From a virus, in IMG/VR virus record IMGVR_UViG_3300037418_001469: a DNA stretch of 64,000 nt; one strand, 5' to 3'. A program made the translations under genes and the position numbers. The notes under the pieces are model-generated. The model saw nothing but the letters and a program-made list of their open reading frames with translations. It was not told where the DNA came from and made no database searches. This document shows, one piece after another, positions 5,272-30,172 of the stretch (position 1 is the first letter of the stretch; every line of letters begins with the position of its first letter).

Positions 5272-5664
5272 TCACTTTTTATTTAGTTTTTGTTCAATTT
5301 TACGGACGCAATCATTTACGTTTTTATTAATCTCAGAACCACTAAAACGTAACACAGACTTATAGCCATTCTTGTATAGATAAGAACTCCTCCTTTTATC
5401 GTACTTTTTTTGGTCGGGGGAAGAATGAAAAGCCTTACCATCGCACTCAATAGCAATATTACCTATAGTCATATCTATATAGTAGGGACCACACCTAGTC
5501 TGAGATTTAACTTTATATCCTTTTCTTGCTAATGCATTATATAACTTCCACTCTATAGGAGATTCACATTTAGGTTTTGTATCTGTTTCTTTATATAATA
5601 TCCATGCAGGGACAAGCAGTGTAGTTAGGAACATAACCACAAGTGATAAATTACCAACACCCAT
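5272..5664 (-). CDS. DUF559/Vsr-like endonuclease with N-terminal transmembrane anchor
   Basis: ESPIEWKLY, YYIDM, IAIECDGKAFH, DKRRSSYL, VLRFSGSEI motifs; hydrophobic residues 6-24. Confidence 0.85.
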   Translation of the reverse strand: MGVGNLSLVVMFLTTLLVPAWILYKETDTKPKCESPIEWKLYNALARKGYKVKSQTRCGPYYIDMTIGNIAIECDGKAFHSSPDQKKYDKRRSSYLYKNGYKSVLRFSGSEINKNVNDCVRKIEQKLNKK

Positions 5665-7105: not shown

Positions 7106-7473
7106 TTGCATATTTTCCTACAACCTGCGTATAATGATAGTAGCATCACAATTGATAATCAAATAGCTTATTCTTCTCACACCTTCTATCTAGTATAGAG
7201 GGGATGGACATAACGACGTTTTATAGTCAGGTGAATGTGAGAAAAAACTTTTTAAAAAAAGTGGAATAAAGTTCTTGACTATCACATAAGCTATACTGTA
7301 AGATGATTATAGTACCACACTAACTTAATACGCTTTACCTTACAGGGATTGTCTCCCCTACATTAACCTTCTATATAGAGGGTATCTCCAAAAAGGCTTA
7401 GTAAGAAACTTAAAAAACTTTTTGGAAAGATTTTAAAATAACGCTTGACAGTTTAAAACTTAACCTTTACAAT
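7106..7473 (+). promoter_or_regulatory. Three tandem sigmaA promoters at start of the plus-strand region
   Basis: TTGCAT-N18-TATAAT (7106-7135), TTGACT-N18-TAAGAT (7275-7304), TTGACA-N17-TACAAT (7445-7473), each preceded by A/T tracts. Confidence 0.8.
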
Positions 7474-7499
7474 TAGGGTAGCTTCAAAATTAACGCTTG

Positions 7500-8440
7500 A
7501 CAGTGAATAAACAGGGTAGTGAGAAAAACCCTACTATATTGTTCATAAGTGGTAACAAGCAACCCACTATAAAAATAGGCTTGCATGAGTTCCTTGACAA
7601 GAAAATAGTTCAAAGAAGACTTACACCCTTCATGTTTTAAAGAGGGTTCGGGTCTTGTCTAACTGATACTCGCTGAAAAAGGTGATTCTTGCCTAATCTA
7701 AGTGAGTGCCAATGGGTTAGCTAATTAGTCAGATATCATGCTTGCATAGGTGATGGAAGATGTCCAAATTACAGGTGAAACTAAGGGTTTTTGACTTAGC
7801 AGGTTCTCTGGAAACGGGCTTGGTGAGTGGGTCAACAATAACCGCAATGACTAAAAGGTGGAACCCAAGCAATTCCGAGCAAAGCGACTTGATTCTAAGG
7901 TTACGAACTAGCTTGGATAGTAAGCTATACACCCCACACTGTATCACCTGAAAAGGTGGGCAGTCTGTGACTTAAAAGTAAGGGGTGAGAACTTGGCAAG
8001 GTTAGGCAGGGACGGGCGACAAGGGTAGCAAAGCGAATCTAAGAACTATTTGACAATACAGGTTAACTTAAAACTTTCTTAGGGAATATTTTATGTTTGT
8101 TGTTGAAAGTTGAAAGTTGAAAGGTTAACCGCTAAAAGTTGGGTATAGCATATCCAAGTGGGAAAAGTAACCATTCACAATATGTGCGGTTACAATGTAG
8201 GATAGCGAGAGCGAATCCAAGGTATAGCAACCTATACCATAATTAAGGTTGTAAATTTCGGATTGTTAAGCAAGTCGAGTAGTCCAAACAATGAGTCCCT
8301 AGGGATTACCATTACAGGCACACTGAAAAAGGTTAGTCTCCTTATTAGGATAAACACTTTAGTAGGTTAGACTGTAAAGGCAAACAAGGTACTATACTCA
8401 CTGGAGCACATGGTACGACTTGCTTGATTGAATCTGATAC
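7500..8440 (+). ncRNA. Candidate large structured non-coding RNA (multi-domain, about 0.9-1 kb)
   Basis: No credible ORF; GC-richer than flanks; nested helices 7603-11/8043-51, 7686-99/7999-8012, 7818-23/7865-70, 7930-35/7982-87, 8126-32/8186-92, 8267-77/8416-26; mismatches are mostly G-U. Confidence 0.75.
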
Positions 8441-8506
8441 GGTTTTATTCGGGGGTTTATCCCTTGAATAATGCTAATAGTCGAATATAAAACTATAACT
8501 TAGGAG

Positions 8507-8827
8507 TTGTTGAAATTGAGAAAAATTGCTAACGATACAAAATTAAACTTTAAGAAAGATTTATCTAACATTGAATTAATGGGAATTGAACATATCTTAA
8601 ACTCGTTTGAAACTGATATTGAATCTGAGGTATTAATGGCTGAGGATTACGGTTTAGCTTATACGAGTTCATCATCATATGCTATGTATAATGTTACGGA
8701 ACATGTAGTATTTGATGGTTTAACTGTTAGTCACTTCTCTATTACTGATAATGATATGCTTATTATGGTATGTACTGATGATGATGAGAATAATCATTGT
8801 TATGAAATAGAGGGTTCGGATTACTAG
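8507..8827 (+). CDS. Acidic hypothetical protein (first stem-bracketed cassette)
   Basis: ORF with TTGGAG RBS; D/E-rich. Confidence 0.75.
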   Translation: MLKLRKIANDTKLNFKKDLSNIELMGIEHILNSFETDIESEVLMAEDYGLAYTSSSSYAMYNVTEHVVFDGLTVSHFSITDNDMLIMVCTDDDENNHCYEIEGSDY

Positions 8828-8943
8828 TCCTTTACCTTTTCCGCCAAATTAAAATCTAACATTCGACTGTTAGTGTTATTCAAGGGATAACATTATCCTC
8901 TGAATAATGGTTATAGTCGAAAAATAAATCATAATTAGAAAGG

Positions 8944-9394
8944 TTGTTGAATATGTTTAACAGTAATCAAATTAAAGTAGTTAGGGAATATTTAGAAAAA
9001 CGTTTTAATACAATGAATGTAACGTATATTAAATCAGGTGCTAGTGGCATACTATTCCAAGTGAATGAATTTGAGTTAGTAGTTATTATTGATACTGATT
9101 ATAATGTTACATTGGGTTATACAAAATATGATGAAGTTCACACTATTAAAGGTGGTTACTCATTAGGGTTATTAGAAAATGCATTGAAAGAAACTGAATG
9201 TGCTTATGCTTAAATGGTTAGTGATGATTACAGTCTTATTTTTGATTCTTGTACTTGGGTTGGTTAATGATGCATTATCAGTATACAGTGTTACTCATTA
9301 TATAGATGTTGTGTTTGTATCTACTATAGGAGTTGCTTTACTATTTGTTTATGTTGTATCTGTATTTGTTACAGTGTTGATTCACAAAAATTAA
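8944..9394 (+). other. Two small genes (8944-9213; 9200-9394 two-TM membrane protein) in second stem-bracketed cassette
   Basis: AGAAAGG RBS; overlapping ORFs; two hydrophobic segments in the second. Confidence 0.7.
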
Positions 9395-9528
9395 TTCCTT
9401 TCTTTTCCCGCCCGCAAAATTTAAGTTCTAAACTTTAAATTAAAATCATATAATCGACTATAACCGTTATTCAGTGGATAACATTCACTGTTAGAATCAA
9501 AAAATAAATCATAGGAGCGTGCTTATTT

Positions 9529-10842
9529 ATGAAAAAATCAGATTTTCTAGAAATGAAAGTTCAAAAATCAGGGGAGTCTTTAAAGGGAATTGCAAGTCTT
9601 ATTACTCAGTCTTTTGAGGTTGAAGCAATGACAAAAAGTGATGAAGATGTTTTATCTCGCAAATTAGATTCAATTGGCAAAGGTTTAGCAAGGGATAAAA
9701 GTATTAACGATGGTAATGGTTGGAATGATGATGTACACCATGATGTTTCATTAACTTCTTATACTCATGATAATGGTGGTCTATATGGTACTGAAACAAG
9801 TTCTTCACCTATTGATATCTGCAATTGGTTTGAATTGAAAAACTATTTAAATCAAATATTAGACACTTATTTACAAGCTAGTGGGAATAAAGTTCATTTT
9901 ACTGTTAGAGGTTCTATGCATGTACACAATACATTATCATATACTTATGATGAGGATTACAACCTTCTTAGTGCTGTAAAATTAGACATTAACGGTGTCT
10001 ACCATAATGTGGCTCGTTTTATCCTTAAGTTTATGCCCGTTATGAAATGGTTGGTAATGACTGATAGAAAAGGTGCTCGTGGGGTTCGTGGTTCATCATA
10101 TGGTGATAAATTTGATAATGATAGATTATTTTCTTGGTGGTCTGAATATGAGGGTTCTATAGATACTGATAGCACATACAGACTAACTCATTTTGATAGA
10201 AACTCATGTTTTCGAGTTATGCAAGCTAATTGCTTACACTATGAAAATCGCTTAGCAGATTGTAGTTTTAACGCTACACACATTGGTATGTGGTTGTCAA
10301 TCAATCGTGCAATAACTCTTATGGGTATTGATTTTTCAAGGAATGGTTATTTGTTCAATATCAATGGTGATGATGTAGAATTATCTAGAGACTTGATGTA
10401 TCAACATTCTAGAGGTTATAAATACGTTGGCAAAGAATCTATCGAAATGCTATATAAACAGTTTGTTGGATATCTTGCAAAATATCTTAAAATTATTGGT
10501 TCACTAGAAACTATTGAAGTGATGGATAAGTTAATCAAGTGTCCTATTTCAGAATACTTAAATGAGAACAATATTACTGAGGAATATTGGAATCTAGAGA
10601 TTATAGAAAAAGTGTTTAATACTAGGAATCGTGCTAGTGATACGGTTCTAAGAGATAGATTCTTAGAAGGTATCAAGGCTATGCTTATTCCTAATGCGGA
10701 TAGCTTGAACGACTTCTTAGATAATACTGCAAGTTATCTAGAGGTAGAATCTAAAAAGGTTAAATCATTATATCAGATGTTCAAACGTGAAAACGTGGAT
10801 ATTGAGTTCTTAGGTGGTAGACTTGTATATCTTGGGGATTAA
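9529..10842 (+). CDS. Amidoligase (glutamine synthetase-like COOH-NH2 ligase), long type
   Basis: SFEVE, HDVSL, TETSS, GSMHVH, HYENRLAD; colinear with 26836-28137 including C-terminal extension. Confidence 0.7.
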   Translation: MKKSDFLEMKVQKSGESLKGIASLITQSFEVEAMTKSDEDVLSRKLDSIGKGLARDKSINDGNGWNDDVHHDVSLTSYTHDNGGLYGTETSSSPIDICNWFELKNYLNQILDTYLQASGNKVHFTVRGSMHVHNTLSYTYDEDYNLLSAVKLDINGVYHNVARFILKFMPVMKWLVMTDRKGARGVRGSSYGDKFDNDRLFSWWSEYEGSIDTDSTYRLTHFDRNSCFRVMQANCLHYENRLADCSFNATHIGMWLSINRAITLMGIDFSRNGYLFNINGDDVELSRDLMYQHSRGYKYVGKESIEMLYKQFVGYLAKYLKIIGSLETIEVMDKLIKCPISEYLNENNITEEYWNLEIIEKVFNTRNRASDTVLRDRFLEGIKAMLIPNADSLNDFLDNTASYLEVESKKVKSLYQMFKRENVDIEFLGGRLVYLGD

Positions 10843-10904
10843 TTTCCCCTTGGTATTAAGTTATAAGTTTAAAGTTTAAAATTATATCGTAGGGGGAATT
10901 AATA

Positions 10905-13937: not shown

Positions 13938-14366
13938 GTGGGGAAAATGATTAAAGTAGAAAATAATACTGTAAGTGTTAATGGGATATCTATTCAATTT
14001 GATTCTACAACAAGTCTTAATAGTTTTTTATTAGACTATGTTTCTAAGCATGAGCAGGTTGTTTCGCAAGTTGAAAAGATTATTATAGAAAAACCTTTTA
14101 ATTATAAGCTACAAATGTTAATTGATACTTGTGGGTATATTGAAATTGAAGAACTTGGTTTATCAGTTCGTTCTTTCAATTGTTTAAAGCGTGCAGGAAT
14201 TAATATAATTAAAGATGTTCTAGAATTAGATTATGAGCGTATAATTAGAGTAAGAAACTTAGGGATTAGAAGTATTAGAGAAATTGAAAGTGTGGTAAAT
14301 GAGTTCACACGTTCTAATTATATTAATTGGTCTGAATCTTTACCGCCCGTTGCAGTCGAAAATTAA
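13938..14366 (+). CDS. RNA polymerase alpha-subunit CTD-like protein
   Basis: [20 protein letters not shown]...[12 protein letters not shown] versus B. subtilis RpoA [20 protein letters not shown]...VRNLGRKSLEEV; no alpha-NTD. Confidence 0.9.
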   Translation: [142 protein letters not shown]

Positions 14367-19092: not shown

Positions 19093-19992
19093 ATGAATGA
19101 AAAGTTAAAGGTGACACGCACATTAGGATTTGAAATTGAGTGCTTTGCAGATGTACCTTCTCGAACAGATAGTTGGGGTGACACATATGTTGATTATGAT
19201 GATGTATCTATTCGTAATTGCGAAGTTAGTACTGATGGTTCATTATATGGAGGTAGCGGTACTCCATTAGAAGCAAAGACAGACCCTATTAAAAATCTTA
19301 ATATTGTAGAAGAAGTTTATAAAGAGTTAAGCGGAATGGATATGAACGTAAATAAAACCTGTGGTCTACATATTCATGTAGATACTAGCGACTACACAAT
19401 TGAGGATAAAGCAAAGTTGTTACGTTTTGGAGCAGGAATTGAATTACTAATGTTCGCATTAGTTGACAAGTCTCGTCAAGGAAACGAATATACAGAAAAA
19501 CTTCATAAAGGTTGGAGAAAGTTATTTCGTTCCAATTTTATGACGCAAAGTATTCCTTTTGATTCTTTTAACAATTTTAGTCAATTAGAAAGATATATAC
19601 AGAATAACTCTACACATAGAGATGCTAGACATATTTGGAATGGTAGATACCAATGGTTAAATGCAGTAGTTAGTCATTGTCCTACCGCAGAGTTTAGAAT
19701 CTTTAGCGCTACTACTGATTATAAACAAGCACAAAAGTTTGGCATGTTAGCCTATCATATCGTAGAAACAATCAAAAATTCTACTATAGAACAAGTAAGG
19801 TTCATTATTCAATCTATCTATCAAAGTCAATCAGTGGACGAAATGCTTGACAGACTATTCGACTCTATTGGATTAGACGGTGAGTTCAGACCTGAAATTT
19901 TAAATGATAAAATGGCTGAATATATTGACAATAAGTTCTGCAAGCCTATTCGTGAGCGTGAATTAGTAGGCGGTGAGCAACGAGCAGTTTAA
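19093..19992 (+). CDS. Amidoligase_2-family enzyme
   Basis: LGFEIE, TDGSL, LEAKT, TCGLHIHVD, GRYQWLN, TAEFRIF. Confidence 0.88.
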   Translation: MNEKLKVTRTLGFEIECFADVPSRTDSWGDTYVDYDDVSIRNCEVSTDGSLYGGSGTPLEAKTDPIKNLNIVEEVYKELSGMDMNVNKTCGLHIHVDTSDYTIEDKAKLLRFGAGIELLMFALVDKSRQGNEYTEKLHKGWRKLFRSNFMTQSIPFDSFNNFSQLERYIQNNSTHRDARHIWNGRYQWLNAVVSHCPTAEFRIFSATTDYKQAQKFGMLAYHIVETIKNSTIEQVRFIIQSIYQSQSVDEMLDRLFDSIGLDGEFRPEILNDKMAEYIDNKFCKPIRERELVGGEQRAV

Positions 19993-20038
19993 AAAAGTTG
20001 TTGACAGTTGAAAGTTGATGTGCTAAGATAGTATTACA

Positions 20039-20185
20039 GTAAGCAATCCTCTAGGGAGGGACGGACACCCTCCTCTCATGAAGCCCATCCTCCTTGAGTA
20101 AGAGGAAAATTATTTTAAATTGGTAAGGGGACTACAGGAGATTGACTGACTATCTATCTCTTGCCTTGCCTAGAGGATTGCTTAC
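20039..20185 (+). ncRNA. Structured 147-nt leader or small RNA closed by a perfect 17-bp stem
   Basis: GTAAGCAATCCTCTAGG (20039-55) / CCTAGAGGATTGCTTAC (20169-85) just after promoter 20001-20029; internal hairpins. Confidence 0.65.
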
Positions 20186-20218
20186 AATAAAATAATAGAC
20201 TATTGGAGGTTATTGTGA

Positions 20219-21118
20219 ATGAGAATGAAGAAGGACTTATTAAAAGGTATTGAACTAGGTAGAACTATTGGAGTAGAAGTAGAAGGTTACACTGGAATGT
20301 ATCGTTCAATGGTTAACAACGGGGTAAGACATAGTTCAACTAAATATGATGGCAGTCTAGGACAGTCTAGAGCTAGTCAAGGTATTGAAGTAGTAACTAA
20401 GCCTATTAAACAACTAGATTTGTTAGATGAAGTATTTGAGGATATCACTAAGTATCAGTGGAATGTTGGCAGAGGAAAGGCAGGCACTCATGTACATGTT
20501 GATGCTAGAGACTACAACGTATTAGACAGAATTAAGATGGCAGTATTTATGAATCTGATTGAAAAGGCTATGTTTTTAATGGTGAAAAAGTCTAGATGGA
20601 GTCGCAACAGCTATGGAAGAAATACTTATTGCAGACCTGTTAGTGGTGGTTGGAAAGACTTATTAAATAAGCTAAATACGGACTATCCTGAATTTGACAT
20701 AACCAAATACGGAAATATCGGACCTTTGCAGTATGATATTATTAACAAACGTAATCTGAACTATAACAGACTAATCACTCCTAATACTATTCGCTATCAG
20801 TTTGTGAATATATGGTCATCTAGCCACAATACAATTGAATTTAGAATCTTTCATGCTATCCGTTCGGCAAAAGATGCTAAGCTATTCTCATTAATGGCAT
20901 ACCACCTAGTAGAAATAGTCAAACATTCTACTCTAGAACACTTAGAGTATCTTGCTGATGAAATCATGAATCAATCAACTAGTGCTGAAAACATGCTAGA
21001 AAGATTTTCTCAAGCTATTGGACTTGATTTTATTCCCAAGATTTACAATGCTGATTTAAAAGCTATAATAGATAGAGATAAGCGTGTCGGTGCAAGAACT
21101 TCATTTGTTGCGGTATAA
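20219..21118 (+). CDS. Amidoligase_2-family enzyme
   Basis: IGVEVE, YDGSL, IEVVT, AGTHVHVD, IRYQFVN, TIEFRIF. Confidence 0.88.
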   Translation: MRMKKDLLKGIELGRTIGVEVEGYTGMYRSMVNNGVRHSSTKYDGSLGQSRASQGIEVVTKPIKQLDLLDEVFEDITKYQWNVGRGKAGTHVHVDARDYNVLDRIKMAVFMNLIEKAMFLMVKKSRWSRNSYGRNTYCRPVSGGWKDLLNKLNTDYPEFDITKYGNIGPLQYDIINKRNLNYNRLITPNTIRYQFVNIWSSSHNTIEFRIFHAIRSAKDAKLFSLMAYHLVEIVKHSTLEHLEYLADEIMNQSTSAENMLERFSQAIGLDFIPKIYNADLKAIIDRDKRVGARTSFVAV

Positions 21119-29053: not shown

Positions 29054-30172
29054 ATGTGTGGAATCTTCGGCTTAATGATGTACTCAAAACAACGTACAAA
29101 GGAAGAATTACGATTCATTAAGGAATTAGCGACAGAACTAGCTATTGAAAATCAGGCTCGTGGCACTCACGCAACTGGTATTGCTACATTCGGAAAAAAT
29201 GGCAATGATGTACTAAAGCACAACGTATCTGCTGATGAACTTACAAGCTATGCTACATGGTGGAATTTCTTAGATAAGAATATTAGTGATAATACTTACA
29301 ATATCCTTGGTCATACTAGATATGCAACTCAAGGCTCTCCTGATAACAATGATAATAACCATCCTATCGTGACAGCTAGTGCAATTGGTATTCACAACGG
29401 TTGGATTAATAATGATGATAGCTTATTCAACAAAGAGAATTTGTTTAGGCAAGCAGAAGTTGATAGTGAAGTAATTTTTCGACTAGCTGATAAAGAAATT
29501 GGCAATGACAGAGAGAATACAAAGACAATGGCAGAAAAACTAGCAGGAGTGTACGCAGTAGCATTTGTTAAAAAGAATGAACCACATATCCTTAACTGGT
29601 TTAGAAACAACAACCCTACTACATTCGCTTATATTCCTGAATTAAATATCACTGTATTTGCTAGTCTACAAGCATACATTAAGAGTGCAATTGCTACAGT
29701 AAATGCCTCTGTATACTATGAAACAGGATTCTCAGTAAGTGAGCAAATTGAATACTTCTCACCTATTCAAGATACTATCATGCAATTCGATGTAACTGAA
29801 AACACTCCTATCCAACAACTAGCACAAGAACCTTTACGATTTCAAGAATCATACGATTACTCATATGGTGGTTATGGCTATAGCAAAGGTGCTTGGTTTG
29901 ATGAAGAGTGGTACGACTACCGCACTGACAGACAACAAGAAGAAGAACATGCTAATTCAATTGAAAGCATTTATGAATTTATCGAAGAAAAGAATCTAGA
30001 ATATTTTATGAGTACTGATGAATATGCTGAAATGATTGAATTGCTAGACCAAAATGAAAAAAACGAATGGTCTAAAGGCTATAAGGCAGGAAGAGAATCT
30101 ACTGAAAACGAAATTAAACTACTCAAAGAACAAGTCAGAACATTATCGCTAGGAGCTAAACTAGCTAACTAA
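29054..30172 (+). CDS. Class II glutamine amidotransferase (second paralog)
   Basis: MCGIFG, RGTHATG, GHTRYATQG, NNHPI, HNGWI, VDSEV. Confidence 0.92.
   Translation: MCGIFGLMMYSKQRTKEELRFIKELATELAIENQARGTHATGIATFGKNGNDVLKHNVSADELTSYATWWNFLDKNISDNTYNILGHTRYATQGSPDNNDNNHPIVTASAIGIHNGWINNDDSLFNKENLFRQAEVDSEVIFRLADKEIGNDRENTKTMAEKLAGVYAVAFVKKNEPHILNWFRNNNPTTFAYIPELNITVFASLQAYIKSAIATVNASVYYETGFSVSEQIEYFSPIQDTIMQFDVTENTPIQQLAQEPLRFQESYDYSYGGYGYSKGAWFDEEWYDYRTDRQQEEEHANSIESIYEFIEEKNLEYFMSTDEYAEMIELLDQNEKNEWSKGYKAGRESTENEIKLLKEQVRTLSLGAKLAN

Follow-up and report, generated by a model that had tools for sequence, protein, structure and literature searches.

Covarying long-range RNA helices enclose small genes in uncultured phages: candidate RNase III processing stems

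In a 64,000-nucleotide stretch of viral DNA (IMG/VR virus record IMGVR_UViG_3300037418_001469; hereafter the window), two adjacent gene cassettes are each bracketed by a 5′ arm (L) and a 3′ arm (R) that can anneal across the intervening coding sequence. The two pairs were designated W1 (L1:R1) and W2 (L2:R2). Comparison with related phages established that long-range pairing of each L(n) with its own R(n) exists on the sense strand and has been preserved in 12 genomes through compensatory base changes. In the interpretation that we favor, with moderate confidence, these helices would be substrates of the host RNase III that release end-paired monocistronic early messenger RNAs (mRNAs), much as the leader-trailer stems of ribosomal RNA (rRNA) do.

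An initial annotation of the window, made from the sequence alone, had described the two stems, and a renewed reading bore out its description. All 30 positions of L1 and R1 pair, three of them as G-U (8472/8875, 8473/8874 and 8478/8869). L2 and R2 form 27 of 28 possible pairs, comprising 26 Watson-Crick pairs and one G-U pair (8908/9466), the remaining position being a U-U mismatch (8899/9475). Just 2 nucleotides (nt; CA) lie between R1 and L2. Four positions distinguish L1 from L2, and at three of them the difference is offset by a change in the R arm. The predicted duplex energies on the plus strand were -42.8 (to -44.2) kcal/mol for L1:R1 and -39.3 (to -40.6) kcal/mol for L2:R2, and both long-range stems were present in the minimum free energy (MFE) fold of 8440-9520. 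On the minus strand the same pairs were weaker by 5-9.5 kcal/mol (L1:R1 -33.3 and L2:R2 -34.3 kcal/mol; the R1:L2 combination reached -20.1 kcal/mol).

The arm motif, searched as a 30-mer and as a degenerate 28-mer, matched only the four arms in 64 kb and had no match in 100 shuffles. When the entire window was scanned with G-U pairs allowed, W1 (34/38) and W2 (28/32) ranked first, above a background of at most 25/28. The maxima of 20 block shuffles ranged from 23 to 31; W1 exceeded all of them, and W2, taken alone, fell only in the upper tail. W1 is thus beyond chance by itself, and W2 is beyond chance because it is homologous and adjacent to W1.

Relatives were identified through the conserved gene for a 437-amino acid (aa) protein that lies downstream of W2. 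These were L001 from IMG/VR, whose whole 157-kb record (G001) is 88% complete, L006 from JGI, and twelve more contigs (L033-L044). The layout upstream of the 437-aa gene was charted for L001, L006, L033-L038, L040, L041, L043 and L044. Gene-enclosing helices, one or two in each, were present in 11 uncultured phage contigs besides the window, in 10 of them directly upstream of the 437-aa gene and in the eleventh (L043) 3.3 kb upstream of it. The window included, this amounted to 20 intact pairs in 12 genomes, with helices of 23-33 bp, loops of 311-852 nt and energies (dG) of -31 to -56 kcal/mol. No gene-enclosing helix was found in L042, a distant, GC-rich relative. Neither the window nor G001, each scanned over its full length, contained any further pair of this kind, leaving one locus per genome, and scans of IMG/VR with arm patterns gave either no match or chance matches without a partner.

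For the analysis of covariation, all L arms were aligned to the reverse complements of all R arms, giving 496 core cells for the 20 pairs. Standard base pairs occupied 97.8% of these cells. When partners were swapped, 69.7 +/- 1.4% of the cells were paired (maximum 75.3% in 2000 permutations), and when the partner was slid by 1-3 columns, 34-46%. Most columns held three to six types of pair and no non-pairs. The best or equal-best partner of each L arm was its own R arm, ties being confined to orthologues and to the two cassettes of the window itself. These column statistics were obtained with custom scripts. RNAalifold, applied to whole orthologous cassettes without preselection of the arms, found the closing helix again in each of the two recurrent families of cassettes, where pairs had changed on both sides. 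Covariation in homologs, one of the checks that the initial annotation had named, was thus found across 20 pairs; the helix is supported among relatives in the way that rRNA processing helices are.

The pairing was also strand-specific. G-U pairs outnumbered A-C combinations by 40 to 2 (binomial p = 2e-10), an excess that points to pairing of sense-strand RNA rather than to a DNA repeat, and the plus-strand duplex was the more stable one in 19 of the 20 pairs. The earlier suggestion that pairing occurs in single strands, drawn from the G-U bias of the window, is therefore upheld in the wider set.

The arms of neighboring cassettes are themselves related, and a shorter-range fold between R(n) and L(n+1) has to be weighed. 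Under such an explanation the functional unit would be a local hairpin, an RNase III site of the T7/SP82 type, and the long-range complementarity would stem from duplication of a palindrome. R1 and L2 of the window can indeed fold (-27.1 kcal/mol), albeit with the three true mismatches already annotated (A-C, G-G and U-U), and R(n) and L(n+1) show complementarity over their outer 6-10 bp at each junction. We nevertheless regard this explanation as very improbable: in all tandem arrays the variable middle of R(n) fits L(n) and not L(n+1), the first L and the last R are left without a full local partner, and swapped partners pair at 70% as against 98% for the real ones. The local folds reached just -19.1 kcal/mol in L001, where the arm middles of the two cassettes are quite unlike, and -9.5 kcal/mol in L006, compared with -32 to -47 kcal/mol for the long-range pairs. 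Long-range pairing thus prevails over hairpin formation between R(n) and L(n+1), and the view in the initial annotation that it is the long-range fold that is selected was sustained by both the swapped-partner control and the weakness of the local hairpins.

A different short hairpin, in which the outer part of the last R arm pairs with a complement just 3′ of that arm, does recur and covary, which speaks for a local unit. It was found at 8 of 13 loci (the window, L033, L034, L036-L039 and L044), with arm variants CGAGTGG/CCATTCG, AGGCGGA/TCCGTCT, TCAGTG/CACTGA and CAGTG/CACTG. The 3′ strand of the window's copy (Table 1) is part of a remnant third L arm at 9484-9513. This hairpin and the outer part of the long-range stem are mutually exclusive.

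In each arm the outer block (consensus TTATCCCTTGAAT) and the inner block (TATAGTC) are conserved, and the ~8 nt in the middle vary and covary. Near the outer end, at fixed positions, a mismatch followed by a U-G wobble is frequent (12 of the 20 pairs). The L arm is followed by an AU-rich leader and ribosome-binding site (RBS) module (AAAAATAAA..AGGAGTTGTTG) that is common to cassettes with unrelated genes. On the other side of the loop, the R arm of many cassettes is preceded by TTTTCCCGCC..AAAAAT and then by TTGACA-17-TAAAAT, with the -10 box touching R. An intact promoter of this kind precedes the final R arm in L033, L034, L035 and L038 and, by eye, in L036 and L006; both copies of the module in the window are decayed. 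The promoter abutting the last R arm is evidently that of the conserved downstream gene, and its transcripts would begin inside R.

The proteins enclosed by the stems are varied. The 29 enclosed proteins fell into 19 families, two of which recur (one phrog_4874-like, the other of ~89 aa), the others being singletons, and a loop may hold 0, 1, 2 or 3 genes. Orthologues of the cassette 1 gene, whose likely start is the TTG at 8516 after AGGAG at 8502-8506, are stem-enclosed in L035, L044, L041 and L043, down to 28% identity and with arms that have almost completely diverged. Orthologues of the first gene of cassette 2 are stem-enclosed in L033, L034, L038 and L035. The cargo of cassette A of L006 corresponds to the third gene of a three-gene cassette in L040. 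The presence of different genes between homologous stems in related phages, the other comparison proposed in the initial annotation, was therefore found. In L037, stems enclose a zeta-toxin/AAA_33-like kinase together with a DUF4258 protein (1455-1922 and 2067-2318), so that the looped-out cargo includes toxin-like candidates for host takeover. Across orthologous cassettes the arms diverge in step with the cargo, which argues for vertical descent. The helices are therefore old and inherited vertically, and the content of the loops turns over.

Homologous arms around unrelated genes could also be the signature of an element that acts at the level of DNA, for which RNA pairing would be a by-product: terminal inverted repeats (TIRs) or a single-stranded DNA (ssDNA) fold-back, akin to integron attC sites, to MITEs (miniature inverted-repeat transposable elements) such as Correia elements, or to the promoter/stem-loop (PeSL) cassettes of T4-type phages. 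Several observations accord with it. Loops hold from none to three genes, and one is empty: in L039 (1276-1394), homologous arms lie 67 nt apart with no open reading frame (ORF) between them, around remnants of the RBS module and of the TTTTCCCGCCCGCAAAAT element, and the duplex is decaying (-20.7 kcal/mol). Tandem cassettes abut within 0-7 nt, some sharing bases; the outer and inner arm blocks are conserved in sequence; metagenome contigs of relatives from four runs match arm segments alone, with other sequence around them; and ssDNA, too, tolerates G-T wobbles. Compensation in the middle of the arms and the 40:2 ratio of G-U to A-C on the coding strand would, however, be unexpected for protein-recognized TIRs or for gene conversion. 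There is one locus per genome in the window and G001 scans, and no integrase or transposase is adjacent, no recombinase domain being found among the ten ORFs of >=100 aa scanned within ~8.5 kb upstream and 7 kb downstream; the sole tyrosine recombinase of G001 lies ~38 kb from its cassettes. By eye, CA flanks W2 on both sides, with no matching duplication at the L001 and L006 junctions. The joint divergence of arms and cargo again indicates vertical descent, and no strand-switch joints were listed in the metagenome contigs, which is weak evidence because only contigs were covered. We judge a DNA-level origin to be unlikely, a minor competitor. A DNA-looping operator was rejected, each pair having its own covarying middle and the G-U asymmetry, and the attC-like ssDNA exchange raised in the initial annotation found no support, since pairing spans 300-850 nt, no integrase is adjacent and there is one locus only.

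The arrangement of transcription signals bears on whether both arms of a stem lie in one RNA. Tandem sigma-A-like promoters upstream of the cassettes (Table 1) are, from their sequence, likely to be the start of the early transcript that carries them. No promoter was seen directly before L1 when the upstream sequence was inspected, so L1 and R1 should share one RNA. There was no terminator-like site between the arms or between the cassettes, nor were there U-tract terminators. Helices of 23-33 bp thus enclose RNA between complementary arms on a presumed common transcript.

Table 1. Positions of the stems, the enclosed genes and associated features (window coordinates unless a contig is named).
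Feature	Position	Strand	Remarks
L1, 5′ arm of stem 1	8457-8486	+	30 bp with R1
R1, 3′ arm of stem 1	8861-8890	+	
L2, 5′ arm of stem 2	8893-8920	+	27 pairs with R2
R2, 3′ arm of stem 2	9454-9481	+	
Cassette 1 gene, phrog_4874 family, about 103-106 aa	8507-8827	+	E 3.6e-29
Cassette 2 gene 1, about 86-89 aa	8944-9213	+	Likely start ATG 8953
Cassette 2 gene 2, 64 aa, hydrophobic	9200-9394	+	No homologue in other cassettes
Cassette 1 3′ tract (TCCTTTACCTTTTCCGCCAAATTAAAAT)	8828-8859	+	Remnant of promoter-upstream element and -10 box, by comparison with relatives
Decayed promoter module, cassette 2	9397-9452	+	TTTTCCCGCCCGCAAAAT (9403-9420), degenerate -35 with a deletion, TAAAAT
Short alternative hairpin	9472-9490	+	CAGTG 9472-9476 (outer R2) with CACTG 9486-9490; dG -7.2, z -2.6
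Conserved 437-aa gene, locus marker in all relatives	9529-10842	+	
Tandem sigma-A-like promoters	7445-7525	+	TTGACA-17-TACAAT 7445-7473, 11/12 consensus match; AACGCTTGACAGT repeated at 7440, 7492
ORF-free, GC-richer leader, ~0.9 kb	about 7480/7526-8456	+	Between promoters and L1
In-loop sigma-A-type promoter (TTGACA-17-TAAAAT/TAAGAT, after TTTTCCCCGCC..AAAAAAT)	L033 1888-1934; L034 3079-3107; L035 1322-1355; L038 1915-1943		

The mechanism that we propose would begin with one early sense-strand transcript, in which L and R arms would pair across 300-850 nt into a helix of 23-33 bp. Each helix would loop out a whole coding unit together with its RBS. Host RNase III would then cut both arms in a staggered manner and release the cassette as a monocistronic mRNA, the ends of which would stay paired through the inner half of the stem. 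Ends paired in this way would shield the cassette mRNA from a 5′ exonuclease of the RNase J1 type and from 3′ exonucleases, and would uncouple the fate of the cassette from the long untranslated leader and the neighboring cistrons. Transcripts from the promoter just before the last R would start in R and lack L, and outer R would fold into a small 5′ hairpin. Conserved arm ends and a common AU-rich leader/RBS module would make the loops sites at which genes can be gained, lost or swapped.

A near-perfect duplex of 28-30 bp is a canonical substrate of bacterial RNase III. In Bacillus subtilis, the enzyme cuts the double-stranded RNA (dsRNA) stems that flank 16S and 23S rRNA, as well as SP82 early RNA (PMC4838370). 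G001, at 88% completeness, encodes no RNase III of its own. Nor was RtcB or a PF09414 RNA ligase found in it, so that the circular mRNA considered in the initial annotation is not supported; this covers two families of ligase in a single relative, 88% complete. With none of these enzymes in G001 and a neighboring 437-aa protein that does not resemble an RNA enzyme (see below), a host enzyme is the economical candidate. Between the forms of mRNA originally envisaged, we infer that the discrete, end-protected one is the best model.

The principal competitor to cleavage by RNase III is a selected RNA structure that functions uncut. The helices might be barriers to exonucleases arriving from adjacent segments, folding insulators that shield the RBS context of each cistron from the long structured leader, or closed loops that bring stop and start together for ribosome re-use; with the alternative local hairpin, they might form a switch governed by promoter choice. 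The covariation and strand evidence fits this equally well. The conserved mismatch and U-G wobble and the covarying alternative hairpin suggest something more than generic dsRNA, and promoters abutting the last R would yield two RNA species with different folds. Yet a near-perfect duplex of 28-30 bp is unlikely to escape RNase III where the enzyme is present (PMC4838370). The Shine-Dalgarno (SD) sequence moreover lies outside the stem, and pairing of the untranslated regions (UTRs) beyond the arms was at the level of chance, which makes direct masking of translation unlikely. On balance a role without cleavage seems to us rather improbable, though it deserves more weight than a DNA-level one.

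The complementarity between CCTTTCT (9397-9403) and AGAAAGG (8937-8943), the RBS of cassette 2, had been noted in the initial annotation. Both motifs are present, and they pair in the MFE fold; a functional pairing was not borne out, however, since the complementarity is not conserved and 5′ UTR-3′ UTR pairing did not rise above shuffles in 13 cassettes. An SD/anti-SD mechanism was rejected on this ground, CCTTTCT belonging to the upstream element of the decayed sigma-A-type promoter, which is intact in relatives.

Several points weigh against processing of the cassettes by RNase III. Cleavage, the transcript ends and co-transcription are steps that we infer, and the host is placed in the Bacillales because the protein matches are confined to phages of that order. 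RNase III could destabilize the cassette mRNAs, as it does for icaR, and the conserved arm blocks with their recurrent mismatch and U-G wobble might point to some specific protein, not RNase III, as the partner. Common ancestry links the 20 pairs, so that the cells of the alignment are not independent, and a strand-biased C-to-T mutation could add to the G-U excess, though not plausibly to the extent of 20 to 1. Finally, no bracketing stems were found in the cultured Bacillus phages that carry a cassette 1 homologue (PJN02, 2S-4 and Flapjack), and no gene-bracketing stems in the host-takeover region of SPO1, a close relative of SP82; these absences argue that the device is not general.

The surroundings of the cassettes were also analyzed. 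The window is part of a large uncultured phage, and an identical 437-aa protein is also encoded on a ~174 kb contig. Its DNA occurs in soil and rhizosphere DNA metagenomes only, with no RNA run listed. DNA searches of a cultured-phage collection with the locus and with 25 kb of the window gave no match, no cultured relative emerged when proteins were searched with the 89-aa and 437-aa genes, and the matches of the window proteins are confined to phages of Bacillales and low in identity. The locus heads a rightward block of early-looking genes, after a 2.7-kb divergent region with sigma-A-like promoters. The left border of that region is formed by a gene for a DUF559 / REase_MTES_1575 (Vsr-like) endonuclease (5272-5664, minus strand), which has a homologue at the same relative place in L036.

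Every relative has a gene-free stretch of 1-2 kb in the place of the window's leader, with short, highly conserved islands. In the window these islands lie at 7536-7583 (94% identical to L034 and L038) and 8198-8254. No Rfam family matched at the gathering threshold or at E <= 1, and no tRNA genes were found. The leader, at the head of the early transcript, is possibly a large structured non-coding RNA. A boxA/boxC antitermination signal was also sought: the best match (7588-7600) had two mismatches, and the 25 matches in the window compared with a shuffle mean of 30. Antitermination of the boxA/rRNA-operon type was rejected, the matches not being above chance.

The 437-aa protein had no sequence match in Pfam, PHROG or the PDB. 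Its structural model (predicted local distance difference test, pLDDT, 88) matched 1tt4/1r8g with E about 1e-6, and the protein is confidently predicted to have a carboxylate-amine ligase fold of the glutamine-synthetase / YbdK (gamma-Glu-Cys ligase-like) / PafA type. With such a glutamine-synthetase/YbdK-like ligase fold, it was rejected as an RNA-processing partner of the stems. Downstream of it lie DUF6011, Amidoligase_2 and glutamine amidotransferase genes, with GGACT genes in relatives. The 437-aa gene and its neighbors may constitute a module for modification of small molecules or of peptides or DNA.

Three further features were recorded downstream. A motif, TCTAAAATTATAT (window form TAAAATTATATCGTAGG), lies just upstream of RBSs, at 10877, 12827 and 12857 in the window; G001 has 24 copies, clustered at 26-40 kb, versus 2 for the reversed control pattern. 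It is a candidate 5′ UTR element or promoter -10 region. A small protein encoded at 13938-14366 and kept in relatives resembles phi29 gp4 in its N-terminal part and also contains an RNA polymerase alpha C-terminal domain (E 1.5e-18). An inverted repeat of 27 nt, 85% complementary (20034-20060 / 20164-20190, 103 nt apart), lies between two 299-aa ORFs (19093-19992 and 20219-21118), and G001 has a comparable one at 29063-29093 / 29154-29184.

Long-range 5′-3′ pairing around whole coding units is textbook knowledge for rRNA and barely documented for bacterial or phage mRNAs. The comparative support here is unusually clean, with 20 pairs, 98% pairing and strand-specific wobbles, and the stems bracket early genes that are small and accessory, of the kind most often tied to host takeover. 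If the helices are RNase III sites, the phage would borrow the logic of host rRNA processing and tune the dosage and lifetime of single early messages; this would also explain how genes are exchanged with their expression context kept. It is conceivable, if still doubtful, that such a gene in a loop is an undescribed general unit in the expression and evolution of early phage genes, combining a pan-handle mRNA for processing and stability with a promoter-choice toggle and a protected docking bay for genes. Were the docking bay real, genes could be inserted, lost and swapped without disturbing the expression signals. The elements are compact (about 30 nt per side) and portable, and are potentially useful as insulating or stabilizing parts for synthetic operons.

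Known systems share parts of this architecture. In the icaR mRNA of Staphylococcus aureus, pairing of the 5′ and 3′ UTRs creates an RNase III substrate, and the SD pairs with a short UCCCCUG motif, so that translation is blocked and decay promoted; its authors called it a singular example (PMC3868564). Like icaR, the present helices would be 3′ UTR:5′ UTR duplexes in a Firmicute mRNA, but they are 23-33 bp long and do not include the SD, and SD/anti-SD pairing does not exceed the chance level. Correia elements (CREE) of Neisseria are bounded by inverted repeats and may carry promoters, and the transcribed repeat is bound or cut by RNase III (PMC2649163). The empty cassette of L039 looks similar. 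CREE, however, are non-coding MITEs of about 100-150 bp in hundreds of copies, whereas here one or two gene-enclosing units occur at one locus with pairwise covariation, with no dispersed copies and, by eye, no target-site duplication to match the CA around W2 at the L001 and L006 junctions. The PeSL cassettes, promoter/stem-loop units that flank small variable early ORFs of T4-type phages and are associated with gene shuffling (PMC2839356, PMC4122927), likewise set conserved regulatory modules beside variable early ORFs in a plastic region. They are direct repeats with a promoter and a local terminator hairpin, acting through DNA recombination; the flanks here are inverted, pair as RNA and show a G-U bias, they lack U-tract terminators, and a promoter stands before some R arms only. 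Integron attC sites also have imperfect inverted repeats, exchangeable cassettes and single-strand folding. An attC site is, however, a local hairpin at one cassette end, used with an adjacent IntI and an attI site, while here the pairing spans the gene, the fold between R(n) and L(n+1) reaches no more than -9.5 to -27.1 kcal/mol and lacks covariation, and no adjacent IntI-type recombinase was found among the ten ORFs scanned.

Early RNAs of T7 and SP82 are polycistronic phage RNAs split by related dsRNA elements between genes, at which host RNase III cuts. Such sites were reportedly described by Panganiban & Whiteley in 1983 and by Mitra & Bechhofer in 1994 (both as cited in PMC4838370). These are local intergenic hairpins, whereas the strands of the present stems flank one or more genes at a distance of 311-852 nt, the 67-nt loop of L039 being the exception. 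The initial annotation knew of no described equivalent for phage mRNAs. The literature covered, which was limited and does not prove absence, yielded no account of phage mRNAs in which genes are looped out one by one, and to that extent the statement stands; as a general one it goes too far, since rRNA, icaR, Correia and PeSL elements share part of the logic.

By analogy, the closest counterpart of the cassette helices is the leader-trailer helix of rRNA. There, too, flanking sequences pair over hundreds to thousands of nt, units are chained, and the helices covary (PMC10250234; PMC4838370). The phage cassettes differ in that their loops hold protein genes with an RBS, that they would belong to a phage early transcript, that their stems lie 0-7 nt apart, and that no boxA-type signal stands out from chance in the window. 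What would be new here is the logic of the rRNA processing stalk, applied to protein-coding phage cassettes.

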